Shown here one piece after another: positions 2,287-9,359 of a stretch of DNA of 54,242 bases. This stretch comes from Bacteroidales bacterium UBA5537 (GTDB taxonomy: Bacteria > Bacteroidota > Bacteroidia > Bacteroidales > Lentimicrobiaceae): assembly GCA_002426025.1 (NCBI GenBank), contig DINP01000102.1, positions 58,189-112,430 of the forward strand, read 5' to 3'. Below the pieces are notes generated by a model. It was not told where the DNA came from. It made no database searches and saw only the letters and a list, made by a program, of their open reading frames with translations. Positions within the stretch are counted from its first letter, which is position 1; each line of letters starts with the position of its first letter. The translations under genes were made by a program, and so were the position numbers.

Positions 2287-3489
2287 TTATTCTTCACCTG
2301 TTTCACTTTTTTTCATTTCCGATAGCAGGTAATAAGCATTGTTCATGGCTACCAACGTACCTTTTTTCAATGGTGACAGCAGTTTTGTTTCAACAATACC
2401 GTTTTCCTTTTGTCCAGTGATAACTTCTAAGGGGCTAAACTTCCAACTATCCTTGTCCTGTTCTGAAATAAAAATAACTTGTTTCCCGTTCTCGCTAACA
2501 ATGGCCCCTTCAGGAAGCGCATAGGAATAATTTTCACCCGTAGAAATTCTTCCGGTGATATACATGCCCGATATCAACAAGCCTTTTTTGTTTTCAATTT
2601 CGGCATGTACATGCACTGCCTTGGGATTTTGTTCAAAAGATTTGCCTACGGCAAAAATTTTAGCTGACAAGGTTTCACCGGGAACCGATTCAATTGAGAA
2701 AGTTACGTTTTGACCTTCTTTCACCTTGTGAACGTCTTTTTCGAAAACCATTAAATCGGCATGGATATGGTCGTTGTTAATTATTTCAAACATTTGCATC
2801 TGGGGGTCGACATATTGCCCGGTCTTTACGTTCACTTTTTCGATGAAGCCATTGATTGGACTAATTACCGGAACTTGTTCAACAATATTTCCCTGTTTAA
2901 TTTTCTCCGGGTCGAGTTTAAGTAATTTCAACTGGGCTTCGAGGTTTTTCACTTCACCGGTAAGTGAGAGGAAATCAGATTGTATTTTTTGAAAATCCTT
3001 GCCTGAACCAACCTGTTCCTCGTACAGCCTTTTTTGCCTTTGGTATTCTTTGTCTGCATATTGCAACTGGTTCCACGCATTTAAATACCTGGTTTGTAAA
3101 TTCAGTAAATCGGGATGACTCAGATAGGCCAGTACCTGCCCTTTGTTAACCTTTTTGCCTTCGTAAACTTCAATTGAAGTAATATTTGCACCAATGATTG
3201 CTGTTACCGAAGCCTCATTCTGGGGCAATACCTCAAGCTGCCCATTGGCCACAACCACACTTGAAAAATTACGTTTCGCTAAGGTATCCACTTTCATTTT
3301 TAATGCGTTAAATTGTTGTGCTGTTAACACAACAGTTGTTAAACCGCCTTCGGCATTTTCTTCCTGACTTCCGCTCTCCTCAGCGGTTTCAGGTTTTTGG
3401 TTGCAGGCCGAAAGGGCAAGGATGAGCATTCCTGCCATGATTACTGTTTTCATAGTAATGCGTGTTCTTTTTATGATTTCTATTTTCAT
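2287..3489 (-). CDS. czcB: RND efflux periplasmic adaptor subunit (CzcB/CusB family)
   Basis: Lipoprotein signal (ALSA-C), helical hairpin, SPINGFIEKVNVKTGQYV lipoyl-like motif; directly downstream of czcA. Confidence 0.9.
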   Translation of the reverse strand: MKIEIIKRTRITMKTVIMAGMLILALSACNQKPETAEESGSQEENAEGGLTTVVLTAQQFNALKMKVDTLAKRNFSSVVVANGQLEVLPQNEASVTAIIGANITSIEVYEGKKVNKGQVLAYLSHPDLLNLQTRYLNAWNQLQYADKEYQRQKRLYEEQVGSGKDFQKIQSDFLSLTGEVKNLEAQLKLLKLDPEKIKQGNIVEQVPVISPINGFIEKVNVKTGQYVDPQMQMFEIINNDHIHADLMVFEKDVHKVKEGQNVTFSIESVPGETLSAKIFAVGKSFEQNPKAVHVHAEIENKKGLLISGMYITGRISTGENYSYALPEGAIVSENGKQVIFISEQDKDSWKFSPLEVITGQKENGIVETKLLSPLKKGTLVAMNNAYYLLSEMKKSETGEE

Positions 3490-3495
3490 TTTTTT

Positions 3496-6400
3496 TTATT
3501 TTGAAGTGTTTAAAAAATATTCAATTTTGAACTGTGAATCGAGATAGCTGGCATTTGCATCCAAATAATCAAATTCAATTTGCATAGCATCCTTCATATT
3601 CTGGAGGAAAGTGACATAATCAATTGCACCCTCCCGATAGGCTGTGATTGCCCCCTGCTTTTGTTCTTTGGCAACGGGCAGTGCCACATTGCGGTAGTAT
3701 TCCGTTGTGGTCAGCCATTTTTGATATTCTTCAAACAGGCTTTTATATGCAGCATTGATTTCCAATTCCTTTTGATGGAAATTTTCCCTGGCAATACTGC
3801 TTTCTATTTTTGCCGATTGTGTTTTGCCAGATTGTGAAACAAAAACAAGCGGGATGCTTAATCCGAACTGGTATTTATAAAACCCGGTTTGACTGCCTAT
3901 TTTCTGGCTCCCATATTCGGCGCTAAATTTGGGCAGGTATTCGGCCTTTGCCAGCTTAATCCTTGCATCGGCCAATTGCACCCTTTGTTCATAAAGTTGC
4001 AATTGAGGGTGTTGATAAATCGAATCCAAAGGTAAATATCCCGGAACGCCTGCATCTTTAATAGAATTATCGTCGACCGTAAAGACGGTATCACTAACAA
4101 GCCAAAGATTTAATTTTTGCAGGGCAATTTGGTAGTCCATTCTTGATTTTTCCTTTTGGACGGTGATTTGTCTGGCCTGGTTTGATGCTGACAAGTATTC
4201 AAGCTTTGACGTGGCCTGGGTCTCGTAGCGCAGCTTTGCAGCCCGTTCAAAATTCCTGAAAACAGAATCGAGCTGTAAATAAAGCCTGTACCGGTTTTTA
4301 GCACTGTACACTTCTCCCCAGGCAATACTGACTTCGCGCACAAGCTCCAGTTCTGCCAGGTTAAGGGCAGTTTGGGAAATAGCTACCTGCTTGTCCTGCA
4401 TCTTTGATTTAGCCCCGATACTTAAAACATCAAATTCCTGCCTTGCCAAAATGGTATTATAGATGCCATTTTCAGTATGGTTACCAAGTTCTTCAGCACC
4501 GGTTGAAAATTCGGTATTCCCTATATCCCAAGCAGTTTTTTTCAAGGCTTCCTGGTTCTTGATTTCAAGTTGGGCTGCTTTTATCAACGGGTAATTAGTT
4601 TTTGTCCGGTTTACCGCCTCATTAATTGTAATCTGAGGCAGGGAATCCGTTTCCTGTGCCTGTGTTTTTGCAGGAATGAGCGATATGCCAAGGCTCAAAA
4701 ACAACAGGATAATTAGCGGAGCATTAGGCGCAGAAAAGCGTCTTAGTTTCCTTCTTTGTGTGAATGCTTCAACCAAAGCATACAAAACAGGAATTACAAC
4801 CAACGTAAGGAGAGTAGCACTAAATAAACCACCGATTACCACAGTTGCAAGAGGACGTTGTACTTCTGCACCTGCTGAACCTGAAATTGCCATAGGCAGA
4901 AACCCTAACATTGCAGCGGTAGCCGTAAGTAATATTGGTCGTAACCTTTCTTGTGTCCCAATGGAAATCCGTTCTATGATATCGGTGACGCCCTCAATTT
5001 TAAGCGAATTAAACCGACTGATGAGGACTAAGCCATTTAAAACAGCAACACCGAAAAGCACAATAAAACCTACGCCCGCAGATATGCTAAAGGGCATTCC
5101 TCTAATCCACAGGGAAAATATGCCTCCAATGGCAGCCAAAGGCACAGCCATGTATATCATCACTGTTTGGGGCAACGAATGTAAGGCAAAGTACAAAAGG
5201 ATAAAAATAAGGGCCAACGCAATAGGCAATACGATTGACAGTCTGTCTTTAGCACGTTGCAGGTTTTCAAATTCACCGCCGTAAGTGATATAATAACCGG
5301 CAGGTAATTCGAGTTGTTTATCCAGTTTTTGTTGGATTTCATTTACTACCGATTCAACATCCCTTCCTCTGACATTTACTCCAACATAAATCCTCCGAAA
5401 AGAGCCTTCCCTTGAAATTTGCATTGCCCCGGGCTGGAAATTTATCTCGGCTACTTCCTTAATAGGGACTTGTTTCCCGTTAGGCAGGTCAACATATAAA
5501 TTTCTTAAATCTTCAATGCTTTTCCGGTGTTCTTTATCAAGCCGGATAACCATGTCGAAACGCCTTTCGCCTTCAAAGATTACGCCTGCGCTACTTCCGG
5601 CAAAAGCCGCGCTGACATACCTGTTGAGTTTGGCAATATCCAAACCGTACTGGGCTATTTTTCTCCGGTCATATTGTACGGTCATTTGCGGTAGCCCGGC
5701 GGTCCTTTCAAGGGTTACATCTTCCGCACCAGGTACTGTTTTTATTATCTCCTCTATTTTCTCCCCCTTTTCAGAGAGCACATCCAAATCTTCGCCAAAT
5801 AACTTAACCGCGACATCTTCCCTTACTCCTGTTAAAAGTTCATTAAAGCGTAACTCAACAGGTTGGCTAAATGTAAAATTAAGGCCAGGCAGATGAGCCA
5901 GTTTTTCCCTGATTTTTTCTATTAGTTCCTCTTTTGTTGATGCAGAAACCCATTTGCTTTTATCCTTTTCAAGAATAATAAAGCTATCGGTAAAGTCAAA
6001 GCCCATTGGGTCGGTTGGGATATCGGCAACACCAATTCGGGCACAAACTGTTTTTACTTCCGGAAAGTTTGCCATAATAATATTCTCAATTTCCTTTTCC
6101 CTATCAATTGTTTCCGACAAAGAACTTCCCGGACGAAGAAAAGCTTGCATGGCTATGTCCCCTTCATCGAGGCTTGGGATAAATTCGCCCCCCATACGGG
6201 TAAAAACAAAAACTGCGCTTACTAATATCGATATAGCAATAACGAGGGTGACAGCTTTACGTTTTAAGGCCAAAAGAAGAATAGGATTATATGCAGCATG
6301 AATCCCGTTTAATAGCTTACTGCTGAATCTTTCTAGTAAATTCTCGAAACGGGCGAACCAGTTGTTTTGATTTTTCGTTGGTTTCATTATGATAGACGAA

Positions 6401-7899
6401 ATCATAGGAACATAGGTAAGGCAGAGCAGTATTGCTCCAAGTACGGCAAACCCGAATGTGAAAGCCATTGGTTGGAACATTTTGCCTTCAACCCCGGTAA
6501 GAAAAAGTATCGGTGCAAAAACGATAAGGATAATTAGTTGCCCGAAAAATGCGGAGTTCATCATAGTACTTGAGGCATGGTATGTAAGTTCATCCATTTG
6601 CGCCTGACCAAATTTTCCTTTTCCTTCCTTCACCCTTTTCTCAATTTCATGTACCGTGCCTTCGACTATAATTACCGCACCATCTACAATGATACCAAAG
6701 TCAATCGCCCCAAGGCTCATCAGGTTTGCCCATACACCAAAAACTTTCATTAAGATAAAAGCGAACAACAGGGACAGAGGAATAACCGAAGCTGTAACCA
6801 GTCCCCCACGAAGACTTCCTAACAAAATGACAAGTACGAAAATGACAATAAGGGCACCTTCCATCAGGTTTCTGCTGACTGTACTTGTTGTCCGCTGTAT
6901 TAATTCGGAACGGTCGAGAAAAGGAGCAATTTCCAGACCTTTGGGTAATGTCTTTTGTACTTCGGCAATACGAGCTTTTACGCTTTGTATCACTTCGTTG
7001 GAGTTTTCGCCTTTCAGCATCAAAATCATACCCCCAACGGCTTCGTGTCCTTCCTGCGTGAAGGCGCCATATCGAACCTGACTGCCAAAATGAACCTGTT
7101 CAGCCACATCGCCAATTAATATCGGTATCCCATTTTCGTTTTTTACCACGATATTTTTTATATCGTCCAATGACCTGGCCAAGCCTTCGCCCCGTATAAA
7201 ATTTGCCATGTGGTCTTTTTCGATATAAGCTCCACCGGTATTGACATTGTTGTTTTCCAATGCTTCAAAAACCTCTGTAATTGAAACACCCATGGCGTTT
7301 AATTTATCGGGGTTCAGGGCAATTTCATATTGTTTAATATTCCCTCCAAATGAATTTACTTCAACGACACCGGGGATTAAAGCCATTTGACGTTTTACAA
7401 TCCAATCCTGAATGGTACGTAATTCGGTTGGGGTATATGTAGTGTCATAAACGGCTTTAGGTTTTATGGTGTATTGAAAAATCTCCCCTAAACCTGTTGT
7501 AATAGGACCCATAAACGGTTCGCCAAACTGAGTAGGTATTTGGTCTTTTACAGCGTTAAGTTTTTCCTGTACGACCTGCCTGGGCAAATAGGTGCCCATG
7601 TTGTCTTTGAACACAATGGTTACTACCGACAAGCCAAACCGCGACACTGAACGTAATTCAATAACCCCCGGCAAATTTGCCATGGCCAGCTCCACGGGAT
7701 AGGTGACAAATTGTTCGATGTCAACCGTAGATAAATTCTGTGAAACTGTAATTACCTGCACCTGATTGTTGGTAATATCCGGGGTCGAATCAAGGTTGAC
7801 TGTTTTTAAAGAATAAATACCTGCTCCAATTAGGGCAAAAAGCATCAGGCTGATTATGAATTTATTCTTTATTGAATAAGATATTATTTTGTTTATCAT
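3496..7899 (-). CDS. czcA: CzcA/CusA heavy-metal RND permease fused to a C-terminal TolC-like outer-membrane factor
   Basis: DSTPDITNNQVQV, SLGAIDFGIIVDGAVIIVE, ERLRPILLTA, QRPLATVVIGG; ~1050-aa RND part followed by ~400-aa OEP-like region (YLPKFSAEYG). Confidence 0.95.
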   Translation of the reverse strand: MINKIISYSIKNKFIISLMLFALIGAGIYSLKTVNLDSTPDITNNQVQVITVSQNLSTVDIEQFVTYPVELAMANLPGVIELRSVSRFGLSVVTIVFKDNMGTYLPRQVVQEKLNAVKDQIPTQFGEPFMGPITTGLGEIFQYTIKPKAVYDTTYTPTELRTIQDWIVKRQMALIPGVVEVNSFGGNIKQYEIALNPDKLNAMGVSITEVFEALENNNVNTGGAYIEKDHMANFIRGEGLARSLDDIKNIVVKNENGIPILIGDVAEQVHFGSQVRYGAFTQEGHEAVGGMILMLKGENSNEVIQSVKARIAEVQKTLPKGLEIAPFLDRSELIQRTTSTVSRNLMEGALIVIFVLVILLGSLRGGLVTASVIPLSLLFAFILMKVFGVWANLMSLGAIDFGIIVDGAVIIVEGTVHEIEKRVKEGKGKFGQAQMDELTYHASSTMMNSAFFGQLIILIVFAPILFLTGVEGKMFQPMAFTFGFAVLGAILLCLTYVPMISSIIMKPTKNQNNWFARFENLLERFSSKLLNGIHAAYNPILLLALKRKAVTLVIAISILVSAVFVFTRMGGEFIPSLDEGDIAMQAFLRPGSSLSETIDREKEIENIIMANFPEVKTVCARIGVADIPTDPMGFDFTDSFIILEKDKSKWVSASTKEELIEKIREKLAHLPGLNFTFSQPVELRFNELLTGVREDVAVKLFGEDLDVLSEKGEKIEEIIKTVPGAEDVTLERTAGLPQMTVQYDRRKIAQYGLDIAKLNRYVSAAFAGSSAGVIFEGERRFDMVIRLDKEHRKSIEDLRNLYVDLPNGKQVPIKEVAEINFQPGAMQISREGSFRRIYVGVNVRGRDVESVVNEIQQKLDKQLELPAGYYITYGGEFENLQRAKDRLSIVLPIALALIFILLYFALHSLPQTVMIYMAVPLAAIGGIFSLWIRGMPFSISAGVGFIVLFGVAVLNGLVLISRFNSLKIEGVTDIIERISIGTQERLRPILLTATAAMLGFLPMAISGSAGAEVQRPLATVVIGGLFSATLLTLVVIPVLYALVEAFTQRRKLRRFSAPNAPLIILLFLSLGISLIPAKTQAQETDSLPQITINEAVNRTKTNYPLIKAAQLEIKNQEALKKTAWDIGNTEFSTGAEELGNHTENGIYNTILARQEFDVLSIGAKSKMQDKQVAISQTALNLAELELVREVSIAWGEVYSAKNRYRLYLQLDSVFRNFERAAKLRYETQATSKLEYLSASNQARQITVQKEKSRMDYQIALQKLNLWLVSDTVFTVDDNSIKDAGVPGYLPLDSIYQHPQLQLYEQRVQLADARIKLAKAEYLPKFSAEYGSQKIGSQTGFYKYQFGLSIPLVFVSQSGKTQSAKIESSIARENFHQKELEINAAYKSLFEEYQKWLTTTEYYRNVALPVAKEQKQGAITAYREGAIDYVTFLQNMKDAMQIEFDYLDANASYLDSQFKIEYFLNTSK

Positions 7900-7911
7900 T
7901 TCATCTTTATT

Positions 7912-8406
7912 TTATTTGTTAGAAACTTGCTTTTGTTTTTCTGCTTTTGTTTCATAGTAATTTTTAAAATTTCGTTCGTTTTTAAAATATACCAACTCCG
8001 GCTTTCCTCTTTCCTTAAGTCCAATAATTGCAACCGATTTATTAATTGAATCACCTGAATATGCATCAGGAGTTATTGCAACCTCTCTGAAATGCTTTAC
8101 GAGATGGTTGAAACATTCCTGACTACAGAAATAATAAATTTTGTCCTCGAAAACCGCTTTGGTGCTTTCATGAATCTGCAGGATATCCCCATCCATACAT
8201 ATCCAATTCTTAGGTACTACTTTGCCATACCAATCCATTTTACGCCAGGTTAACCTAGTGTCACACCGATAGGTATAAAAAATAAGAATTGATAATAAAC
8301 ATAGAAAAAGGATGCTGAAACTTATCAGCATAGTTCTGTTAAATTTTTTGTCGTCAAGCTTTTGCTTATCAATAAGCTGTTGCTTGCTTAATCTCTTCTT
8401 TTTCAT
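7912..8406 (-). CDS. Membrane-anchored TRASH/YHS-type metal-binding protein
   Basis: One TM helix, then C-x(21)-YYFCSQEC, a TRASH/YHS-like Cys motif. Confidence 0.7.
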   Translation of the reverse strand: MKKKRLSKQQLIDKQKLDDKKFNRTMLISFSILFLCLLSILIFYTYRCDTRLTWRKMDWYGKVVPKNWICMDGDILQIHESTKAVFEDKIYYFCSQECFNHLVKHFREVAITPDAYSGDSINKSVAIIGLKERGKPELVYFKNERNFKNYYETKAEKQKQVSNK

Positions 8407-8476
8407 ACTTAAAAGATTAAGTGATACTATTTCCGATAAAATACTCTATCGGATTAATAAGAAAATCAAAAAGAAA

Positions 8477-8875
8477 TTAAACAGTGGCGGGAGGTGCCCT
8501 TGATGAATGGTTGGTAAGGAATATTAGCTTATGCGGAGAGAATATGAAACAATGGGTAAAGTTTACCTCATTGAGTTTTGACACAAAATCAAAATCTGTG
8601 CTGATGCCAAAAAGGTCGAGATTGAAATTTGATAAAGGAGCTGAATGAATACCTAAATCGCTTCCCTTTTCCGAAATAATAAGATTAAATGCATGACAAT
8701 GCGAATCCGGTTTTTCATTGGGACTATCGGTATTGGAAGTTTTACATTCTATGTTCTCTGGATGATCTTCGACAGTATCGAAATGATGATGATGGGGAAT
8801 AACAGCATGGGAAAGAATCATTATCCCCGCAATGAGGATAAGAAATTTGCTTGTATGTTTCTCCATTAATATCAT
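8477..8875 (-). CDS. Small His-rich exported/membrane protein (DUF6769-like), typical upstream of Bacteroidota czc operons
   Basis: Hydrophobic N-terminus followed by HAVIPHHHH, DSHCH, and C-terminal RAPP. Confidence 0.7.
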   Translation of the reverse strand: MILMEKHTSKFLILIAGIMILSHAVIPHHHHFDTVEDHPENIECKTSNTDSPNEKPDSHCHAFNLIISEKGSDLGIHSAPLSNFNLDLFGISTDFDFVSKLNEVNFTHCFIFSPHKLIFLTNHSSRAPPATV

Positions 8876-8907
8876 GTTATCAAGACTTTATTCTAGCAAT
8901 ACAACGT

Positions 8908-8915
8908 CAAAAATA
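8908..8915 (-). promoter_or_regulatory. Bacteroidota -7 promoter element for the czc operon
   Basis: Minus strand TATTTTTG matches TAnnTTTG, ~33 nt upstream of the 8875 start. Confidence 0.55.
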
Positions 8916-8927
8916 CTAAATTGTTGA

Positions 8928-8942
8928 TGCAACCGGGTTGCA
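8928..8942. promoter_or_regulatory. Candidate operator palindrome TGCAAC-N3-GTTGCA
   Basis: Perfect 6-3-6 inverted repeat between the Fur-like stop and the czc promoter, overlapping the expected -33 region. Confidence 0.65.
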
Positions 8943-8945
8943 AAG

Positions 8946-9359
8946 TTACTTTTTGCAATTGGAGCAGACTCCTTTTACTACCATATTTACGCTTTCAAGG
9001 GAAAAATTATTGGGTAGGCTAATTGAAGGAATTGGAAAATCATTTAAACAAAGGGTCTGATTGCATTTTGTGCAAAGAAAATGAACATGCAGTTCTTCGG
9101 GCATACATTCGCAAGTGTCCTGGCAAAGTGCATATTTTACCGTTCCACTCCCGTCGTCGATACTATGAATAAGTTTGTTCTTTTCAAAAGTTTTGAGTGT
9201 CCTGTATAATGTGGCTTTATCTACTTTCTCAAATTTATGTTCTAATTGAGGCAAACTAATAGCAGTTTTTTGCTCGATTAAAACTTGCAATACCAACTCT
9301 CGCATAGCGGTTGGTTTGATGTTTTTCGAGTTGAGTTTGTTGTCTATTTCTTTCTTCAT
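8946..9359 (-). CDS. Fur-family transcriptional regulator
   Basis: KPTAMRELVL, DKATLYRTLKTF HTH, HVHFLCTKC and GVCSNC CxxC motifs. Confidence 0.92.
   Translation of the reverse strand: MKKEIDNKLNSKNIKPTAMRELVLQVLIEQKTAISLPQLEHKFEKVDKATLYRTLKTFEKNKLIHSIDDGSGTVKYALCQDTCECMPEELHVHFLCTKCNQTLCLNDFPIPSISLPNNFSLESVNMVVKGVCSNCKK

Follow-up and report, generated by a model that had tools for sequence, protein, structure and literature searches.

The fusion gene and its linker

The window analyzed here is a 54,242-nt stretch of DNA from Bacteroidales bacterium UBA5537 (assembly GCA_002426025.1, contig DINP01000102.1, positions 58,189 to 112,430 of the forward strand), and coordinates given without a contig name refer to it. 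A single open reading frame (ORF) on the minus strand at 3496..7899, stop-free over 1467 codons (precursor of 163.3 kDa), joins a CzcA-type pump of the resistance-nodulation-division (RND) superfamily, a predicted internal signal peptide and an outer membrane factor (OMF). The RND part, residues 1-1043 (4771..7899, minus), matches TIGR00914 and PF00873 along their full length. The TIGR00914 (CusA/CzcA, NCBIfam) match reaches 1157.7 bits over residues 1-1045, against a cut-off of 701.45, and the PF00873 (ACR_tran) match reaches 923.7 bits and covers profile positions 1-1020 of 1021. With the curated cut-off exceeded at full length, the pump belongs to the heavy-metal efflux (HME) RND family; the family match, together with the metal-related genes that surround it, suggests a role in metal efflux. 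The C-terminal third of the ORF contains two matches to PF02321 (OEP).

The linker between these two parts was read residue by residue; all its elements lie on the minus strand. The last RND helix, transmembrane helix 12 (TM12), occupies residues ~1016-1042 (PLATVVIGGLFSATLLTLVVIPVLYAL; 4774..4854), and in RND pumps the end of this helix, like the C-terminus of the chain, is cytoplasmic. It is followed by an n-region predicted to be cytoplasmic (residues 1043-1061, VEAFTQRRKLRRFSAPNAP, with five Arg/Lys and one Glu; 4717..4773), by an h-region of 14 residues between Pro1061 and Pro1076 (residues 1062-1075, LIILLFLSLGISLI; 4675..4716), and by the c-region PAKTQA (residues 1076-1081; 4657..4674), with Thr at -3 and Ala at -1. 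The predicted signal peptidase I cut falls after Ala1081, between nt 4657 and 4656, and would leave Gln1082 (CAG, 4654..4656) as the new N-terminus of a mature OMF of 386 residues and 44.2 kDa that carries both OEP repeats (residues 1082-1467; 3499..4656). The linker string between pump and OMF is ...LYALVEAFTQRRKLRRFSAPNAPLIILLFLSLGISLIPAKTQA↓QETDSLPQITINEAV..., where the arrow marks the predicted cut. An earlier note on this DNA had described a basic n-region, an h-region, a T-x-A site and Gln at +1 in the interval 4654-4755, which runs from R1049 to Q1082, and residues 1048-1085, QRRKLRRFSAPNAPLIILLFLSLGISLIPAKTQA↓QETD, read exactly as it reported.

A type I signal peptide is recognizable here in the basic n-region (RRKLRR), in the 14-residue h-region and in PAKTQA with its helix breaker at -6. 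The N-terminal location of such a peptide is lacking, as the segment begins at about residue 1045 of 1467. Judged by its residues, the linker would act like a signal peptide, and because it is internal it is not a member of the classical class. We consider it likely, and hold this with good confidence, that the ORF encodes a precursor of two proteins, in which signal peptidase I cuts the internal signal peptide after Ala1081 and frees the OMF for the outer membrane. The earlier note had called the product a self-splitting polyprotein. The notion of a two-protein precursor with an internal cut site is supported by the sequence, whereas "self-splitting" is a misnomer, because the proposed cut would be made by the signal peptidase I of the host and not by the protein itself. 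The host genome encodes this enzyme.

Distribution of the fusion

To place the gene among its relatives, the OMF part was used as the query against a phylum sample of 301 Bacteroidota genomes, drawn evenly, with a threshold of E ≤ 1e-15; a locus was counted as fused when its open frame was at least 1400 aa long. The 114 matches comprised 97 fused loci, found in 83 genomes (28%), 16 stand-alone loci and one locus at a contig end. The statement of the earlier note that RND-OMF fusions are common in Bacteroidota is therefore borne out by 83 of the 301 genomes. More than 600 homologs of ~1470 aa share the RND-OMF architecture, and nearly all of those that carry a name belong to Bacteroidota (Prolixibacteraceae, Echinicola, Algoriphagus, Cyclobacterium, Marivirga, Pontibacter and Sinomicrobium), together with one metagenome-assembled genome labelled Smithella. 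Among the more distant fused cluster representatives, for which identity in the OMF part is 25-43%, are Brumimicrobium, Arenibacter and a cluster of 1147 members from Phocaeicola plebeius.

The fusion is also repeated within the host. A second fused CzcA-OMF paralog of 1466 aa is encoded on contig C108 (14367-18686, minus); it is 47% identical to the window protein overall and 27% identical in the OMF part, and its internal signal reads KLKR-VTIALILLIPGLG-AFA↓Q (KLKR-GVTIALILLIPGLG-AFA↓QNK when extended to +2 and +3). The host's two HME-type RND genes are both fused, and its three other RND pumps (on contigs C10, C7 and C44) have separate OMF genes.

These data bear on the suggestion that the fusion might be a decaying or accidental read-through, a pseudogene or an assembly artefact without function. 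Annotation pipelines, which label the fused entries only "CzcA", would be in keeping with such a view. However, the identical 1467-aa protein is found on five contigs of independent assemblies, and for this reason the fusion is not an assembly error. The more than 600 fused homologs, their presence in 83 of the 301 genomes and the second paralog in the same genome speak against it as well, as do the intact state of both domains and the absence of another OMF gene from the operon. The comparative data refute this explanation, and we give it practically no credence. More than 600 entries named only "CzcA" hide an outer-membrane protein, and genome-based counts for Bacteroidota, including the human-gut Phocaeicola, are therefore too low for OMFs, for secreted proteins and for Q-rule substrates (see below). 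Five of the frames of fused length (G291, G275, G287, G219 and G204) contain one TAA; the translations of their junctions are stop-free, so the TAA lies elsewhere, and these frames may be pseudogenes or upstream extensions of the frame.

Conservation of the junction

We examined the junctions in two ways. The first is an alignment of 110 fused homologs, among whose linkers 80 are distinct; position -1 is Ala in 78 of the 80 and position +1 is Gln in 78 of the 80; position -3 is Ala, Thr or Val in 74, position -2 is variable, and position -6 is Pro in 52. For the second approach, 113 loci from other genomes of the phylum sample were fetched and the two fused genes of the host were added, which yielded 98 fused junctions, of which 87 are distinct. 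In 97 of these 98 junctions, a small residue and then Gln occur 7-25 residues past the point where the most hydrophobic 10-residue window begins, the residue at -1 being Ala in 87, Ser in 6, Gly in 3 and Thr in 1. The control consisted of 1595 hydrophobic cores within the RND parts of 152 homologs, of which only 1.4% were followed by AQ and 6.7% by [AGS]Q. The conservation of the n/h/c pattern across fused homologs, which the earlier note had proposed as a check on its reading, is thus seen both in the alignment (78/80) and in the genome sample (97/98).

A profile of the 98 junctions anchored at the site resolves the three regions. Between -26 and -20, Lys and Arg make up 28-46% of the residues and Asp and Glu are nearly absent; the n-regions of the 98 junctions have a median net charge of +4. 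From -16 to -7 the positions are 66-87% hydrophobic, and there is not a single charged residue between -15 and -7. Ser, Pro or Gly occupies -6, and Asn, Gln, Phe, Tyr or Lys occupies -2. The residue at -3 is Ala, Val, Gly, Ser, Leu, Thr or Ile in 93 of 97 junctions, the others having Phe, Tyr or Pro. The sequence of the h-region drifts among homologs while its hydrophobic character is kept, which is the usual course of signal peptide evolution. Across the junctions the hydrophobic core is 10-14 residues long, a length that is short for what would be a stable membrane anchor. Fused homologs whose OMF parts have diverged to 21-27% identity still show the n/h/c pattern, the -3/-1 rule and Gln at +1, and an A/G↓Q site is present in six of the seven distant cluster representatives.

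The residue at +1 connects the junction to a rule known for this phylum. In Bacteroidota, type I substrates tend to expose Gln at +1, which glutaminyl cyclase converts to pyroglutamate; this Q-rule has been described as specific to type I substrates in the phylum and holds for 77% of them in P. gingivalis (PMC5837995, PMC10653852). The host follows this rule. Among 711 candidate signal peptides of the host genome, Gln follows a crude -3/-1 site, chosen by a picker that ignores +1, in 27%, compared with 3% for the same motif elsewhere in proteins, a difference of about ninefold. The four other proteins of the window that the note had listed with Gln at +1 were likewise found, with N-terminal signal peptides ending in ITSA↓Q, LTA↓Q, ISA↓Q and SMA↓Q. 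The stand-alone OMFs of the host have xxA↓Q in six of the seven with readable N-termini; an eighth OMF frame (C28) is incomplete. The junction resembles Q-rule substrates in its A-x-A↓Q type of site, in the Gln kept at +1 in 97/98 junctions and in the bias that the host shows in its N-terminal signal peptides. It differs from the described substrates, all of which have N-terminal signal peptides, in that the signal of the fusion lies ~1045 residues into the chain. The supplements of PMC5837995 contain no RND or CzcA entry.

It could be asked whether the precursor is cut elsewhere or by another protease, either within the helix by an enzyme of the rhomboid or site-2 type or by signal peptidase II. 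An internal position is indeed atypical for a substrate of signal peptidase I. Against this stands the finding that the conserved positions are exactly -3, -1 and +1 of a type I site, and that Gln at +1 fits the Q-rule, which in this phylum is described only for type I substrates (PMC5837995, PMC10653852). We therefore regard a different protease or site as improbable. As to lipoprotein processing by signal peptidase II, neither this gene nor any of the sampled junctions has a lipobox Cys after the h-region, the +1 residue being Gln, and this route is ruled out.

Stand-alone relatives and split loci

The stand-alone relatives of the OMF part carry N-terminal signal peptides that end in A↓Q at the position matching the linker site, just ahead of the first-helix motif ISLxEA, and the linker is homologous to these signals. 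Seven of the 16 stand-alone loci of the phylum sample lie directly after a czcA-type gene, either overlapping the czcA stop codon or separated from it by 6-17 nt. At one of them (L059, G127:C1:650046-650646), in a genome from the same taxonomic order as the host, the czcA stop codon, two further codons and the ATG of the OMF gene are in one frame (...TFTKK-stop-AE-MKTKIIL...), and therefore a single base change there would yield the fused form. At five further split loci the OMF gene begins in another frame, up to ~60 nt ahead of the end of czcA, and at one it begins after a gap of 17 nt. The CzcA proteins of split loci terminate right after TM12, which indicates that the extra hydrophobic segment of the fused proteins belongs to the OMF as its export signal and not to the pump.

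Of the 98 fused junctions, 22 keep M[KRNS] just ahead of the h-region; the window gene has none. They represent either relics of OMF start codons or internal starts that can still be used. In the latter case, translation of the OMF might begin mostly at an internal start ahead of the signal peptide, independently of the pump, and the full-length protein would be a minor or useless by-product. Yet in 59 of the 98 fused junctions the n-region has no Met, and the open frame is kept in 97 of the 114 related matches, down to 21% identity. Furthermore, ribosomes that complete CzcA would still yield the fusion, and processing would be needed anyway. The window gene lacks any in-frame ATG or GTG from residue 1021 to residue 1081; a signal-bearing OMF is for this reason not easily made separately, and we reject an internal start as the main route for this gene. 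Overall, we judge translation of the OMF by itself to be an unlikely explanation of the fused genes, although the 22 junctions with M[KRNS] suggest that internal initiation may contribute in some species.

Three stand-alone relatives (P0325, P0329 and P0341) have odd N-terminal extensions, made of repeated GIWNLEFG- or WNLKFG-like peptides, before their signal peptides. From their sequence, these extensions resemble the translation of a DNA repeat that was inserted at the point where czcA and the OMF part would otherwise meet.

Fold of the C-terminal part and reach of an uncleaved chain

Residues 1049-1467 were modelled with AlphaFold2 from 35 aligned sequences, with a mean predicted local distance difference test (pLDDT) score of 82.6; the first 37 residues, which comprise the linker, are of low confidence. 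The OMF part has the topology H1-H2-b1-b2-H3-H4 / H5-H6-b3-b4-H7-H8, with four barrel strands. In a Foldseek search of the PDB, the top matches of the OMF model were all OMFs (TolC, CusC, SilC, TOprJ1, OprJ, OprN and OprM), with template modelling (TM) scores of 0.65-0.76 and a probability of 1.00. The scores were 0.71-0.76 for TolC (7ng9, 1ek9), CusC (3pik), SilC (9rmm) and TOprJ1 (9j3d). At the level of sequence, the OMF part had one marginal match in the PDB, to OprJ (E ~1e-3). As modelled, residues 1082-1467 form a complete TolC-like OMF protomer.

The model also gives the length of the spacer between the predicted cut and the folded protein. Gln1082 is model residue 34, a beta bridge is formed by residues 41-42, and H1 spans residues 44-54, which puts the first structured elements of the OMF (the beta bridge and H1) 7-10 residues beyond the cut site. 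In an assembled pump, H1 of the OMF lies in the equatorial belt, at the middle of a periplasmic barrel of 100 Å, and the periplasmic part of the RND protein is 70 Å tall (PMC8277102). Because the spacer of 7-10 residues is set against more than 100 Å to be spanned, an OMF still joined to the pump would be unable to get to the outer membrane. Put differently, a linker of ~15 residues cannot, on the modelled geometry, bridge well over 100 Å; this argument rests on the positions of secondary structure in the model and on the published dimensions.

This result is central to another possible explanation, namely that the hydrophobic segment is a permanent thirteenth transmembrane helix, and that the gene product remains a single 163-kDa chain with its OMF-like domain tethered to the inner membrane in a periplasmic or non-canonical role. 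The ORF is continuous, and the uncharged span from F1055 to A1077, 23 residues in length, could cross a membrane. However, a mere anchor would leave unexplained the near-invariant Ala at -1 and Gln at +1 and the -3 rule, and the core itself has only 10-14 residues, with Pro, Gly or Ser at -6. Nor does a tethered role suit a domain that forms an entire OMF protomer, four barrel strands included, and that, given the dimensions cited above (PMC8277102), the 7-10-residue spacer is too short to deliver to the outer membrane. Split relatives, moreover, export the same domain by means of a predicted cleavable N-terminal signal. A permanent anchor therefore seems to us improbable.

Proposed processing

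We propose the following course of events for a precursor cut by signal peptidase I. The RND part would insert co-translationally, placing 12 helices in the inner membrane and ending in the cytoplasm, where its Arg/Lys-rich tail would fix the next segment in the N-in/C-out orientation. With the tail and the h-region so oriented, the c-region would come to lie at the periplasmic face, the site at which signal peptidase I acts. The 14-residue hydrophobic segment would be the OMF's own signal peptide, retained after loss of the czcA stop codon. It would re-open the Sec translocon, and the 386-residue OMF chain would be threaded into the periplasm, much as the two periplasmic loops of ~300 residues in the RND part had been exported before it. 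Signal peptidase I would then cut after PAKTQA (Ala1081) and free the OMF at Gln1082, which would probably be cyclized and which, under the Q-rule, is a candidate for pyroglutamate (PMC5837995, PMC10653852). The freed OMF could follow the usual chaperone and BAM route to the outer membrane and trimerize there, while the signal peptide would stay on CzcA as a thirteenth, C-terminal helix. CzcB would be made separately, as a lipoprotein. The outcome would be one pump protomer for each channel protomer, both released at one place, and a benefit from this 1:1 stoichiometry is plausible.

The proposal makes the products explicit. The 163.3-kDa precursor would give rise to a CzcA of 119.2 kDa that includes the thirteenth helix and to an OMF of 44.2 kDa that begins at Gln1082. 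The sequence spanning the predicted cut is ...IPAK-TQAQETDSLPQITINEAVNR; the predicted N-terminal peptide of the OMF would be pyroGlu-ETDSLPQITINEAVNR, and CzcA would acquire a new C-terminus consisting of FSAPNAPLIILLFLSLGISLIPAK followed by TQA.

Several points weigh against this interpretation. A literature search, together with the supplements of the Q-rule paper PMC5837995, yielded no experiment and no proteomic datum on the cut in any member of the family. About 14% of the related loci (16 of the 114 matches) are split, which means that the fusion is dispensable for function. Some fused homologs have no Gln at +1 (ASA↓V in Phocaeicola plebeius and VYA↓E at locus L079 of genome G209), and these keep the -3/-1 pattern. 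The motif search, which looked for a small residue and Gln, fixes Gln at +1 in the site-anchored profile by construction; the independent statistics for this residue are the alignment of 80 linkers and the comparison of 97/98 junctions with the control cores. Finally, in-frame TTG codons at residues 1033, 1039 and 1042, inside TM12, offer a remote chance of internal initiation.

Taken together, the anatomy of the linker and its deep conservation strongly support cleavage by signal peptidase I, a step that we infer, as we do the export of the OMF, the formation of pyroglutamate and any advantage of the fusion. More guardedly, we lean towards a broader proposal: in roughly a quarter of Bacteroidota, the channel of an HME-RND pump would be made obligatorily as the C-terminal part of the pump, exported co-translationally while its ribosome is already docked on the Sec translocon, and released by an internal Q-rule cut, with the thirteenth helix kept on the pump and with equal numbers and co-release of the two proteins enforced.

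Relation to known systems

The system is a variant of the known HME-RND tripartite pump. It shares with CzcCBA, CusCBA and ZneCAB of Proteobacteria an RND protein of the CusA/CzcA family (TIGR00914), a CzcB-type adaptor, an OMF of the TolC fold with two OEP repeats, and the context of a metal-resistance operon with a Fur-family regulator and a cation diffusion facilitator (CDF) transporter. In those systems, however, the OMF is encoded by a separate gene and has its own N-terminal signal, often that of a lipoprotein (CusC). Here, by contrast, the OMF is the C-terminal third of the pump, the signal is internal, of type I and without a lipobox, and the pump would keep a thirteenth helix. Full-text searching of the literature returned no description of an RND-OMF fusion or of its processing.

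Among bacteria, the clearest and nearest precedent known is FbcH, the cytochrome b/c1 precursor of Bradyrhizobium japonicum, in which a polytopic inner-membrane protein, an internal signal sequence and an exported protein are said to share one ORF. Its processing, a split at the internal signal that follows insertion into the membrane, was reportedly demonstrated by experiment by Thony-Meyer, Hennecke and colleagues in 1989-1991. As read from its sequence, the fusion would have the same architecture, that is, a polytopic protein with N-in/C-in topology, an internal signal peptide and an exported protein in one ORF. The two cases differ in that both FbcH products stay at the inner membrane within one complex, whereas the second product here would be a beta-barrel protein bound for the outer membrane; the protein families are unrelated, and the processing is in our case predicted. 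A more remote likeness exists to the glycoprotein precursors of flaviviruses and bunyaviruses, in which internal signals placed after transmembrane segments translocate the domain that follows and are cleaved by the signal peptidase of the host (PMC7926653). Those, unlike the present fusion, are viral proteins handled by the eukaryotic signal peptidase of the endoplasmic reticulum, and neither their sequence nor their function is related.

The significance of such processing lies in how pumps of this kind are thought to be put together. The three parts of tripartite efflux pumps are taken to be made separately, and there is continuing debate about how, and in what ratio, pump and channel come together across the periplasm. 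If the proposal is true, the fusion is a natural bacterial polyprotein that serves two membranes and is resolved by signal peptidase I. It would mean that an outer-membrane beta-barrel protein can enter the periplasm without a free N-terminal signal, and that 12 preceding transmembrane helices are no obstacle to the export of a TolC-type barrel. The release of pump and channel at one place could seed the assembly of the trans-envelope complex, and fused, split and uncleavable versions of the gene would provide a simple genetic handle on whether co-synthesis aids pump assembly.

Neighbouring genes

The third component of the pump is encoded 7 nt downstream of the fusion gene, at 2287..3489 (minus), by a czcB-type gene for a periplasmic adaptor (membrane fusion protein) of 400 aa with the lipobox LSAC. 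It is directly followed by a P-II-like gene (1892-2224, minus), and a CDF transporter gene lies further downstream (235-1050). Upstream, genes in the same orientation encode a 164-aa uncharacterized protein, a DUF6769 protein and a Fur-family regulator (7912..9359, minus). The Fur-family regulator, the CDF transporter, the P-II-like gene and their neighbours form a metal-resistance island around the fusion gene, and no separate OMF gene is present among the genes of this island in the window. Directly preceding the fusion gene are the 164-aa protein, which has no Pfam match, and the DUF6769 protein (7912-8875, minus). Along with the P-II-like protein, these two may be uncharacterized accessories of the metal-efflux operon.

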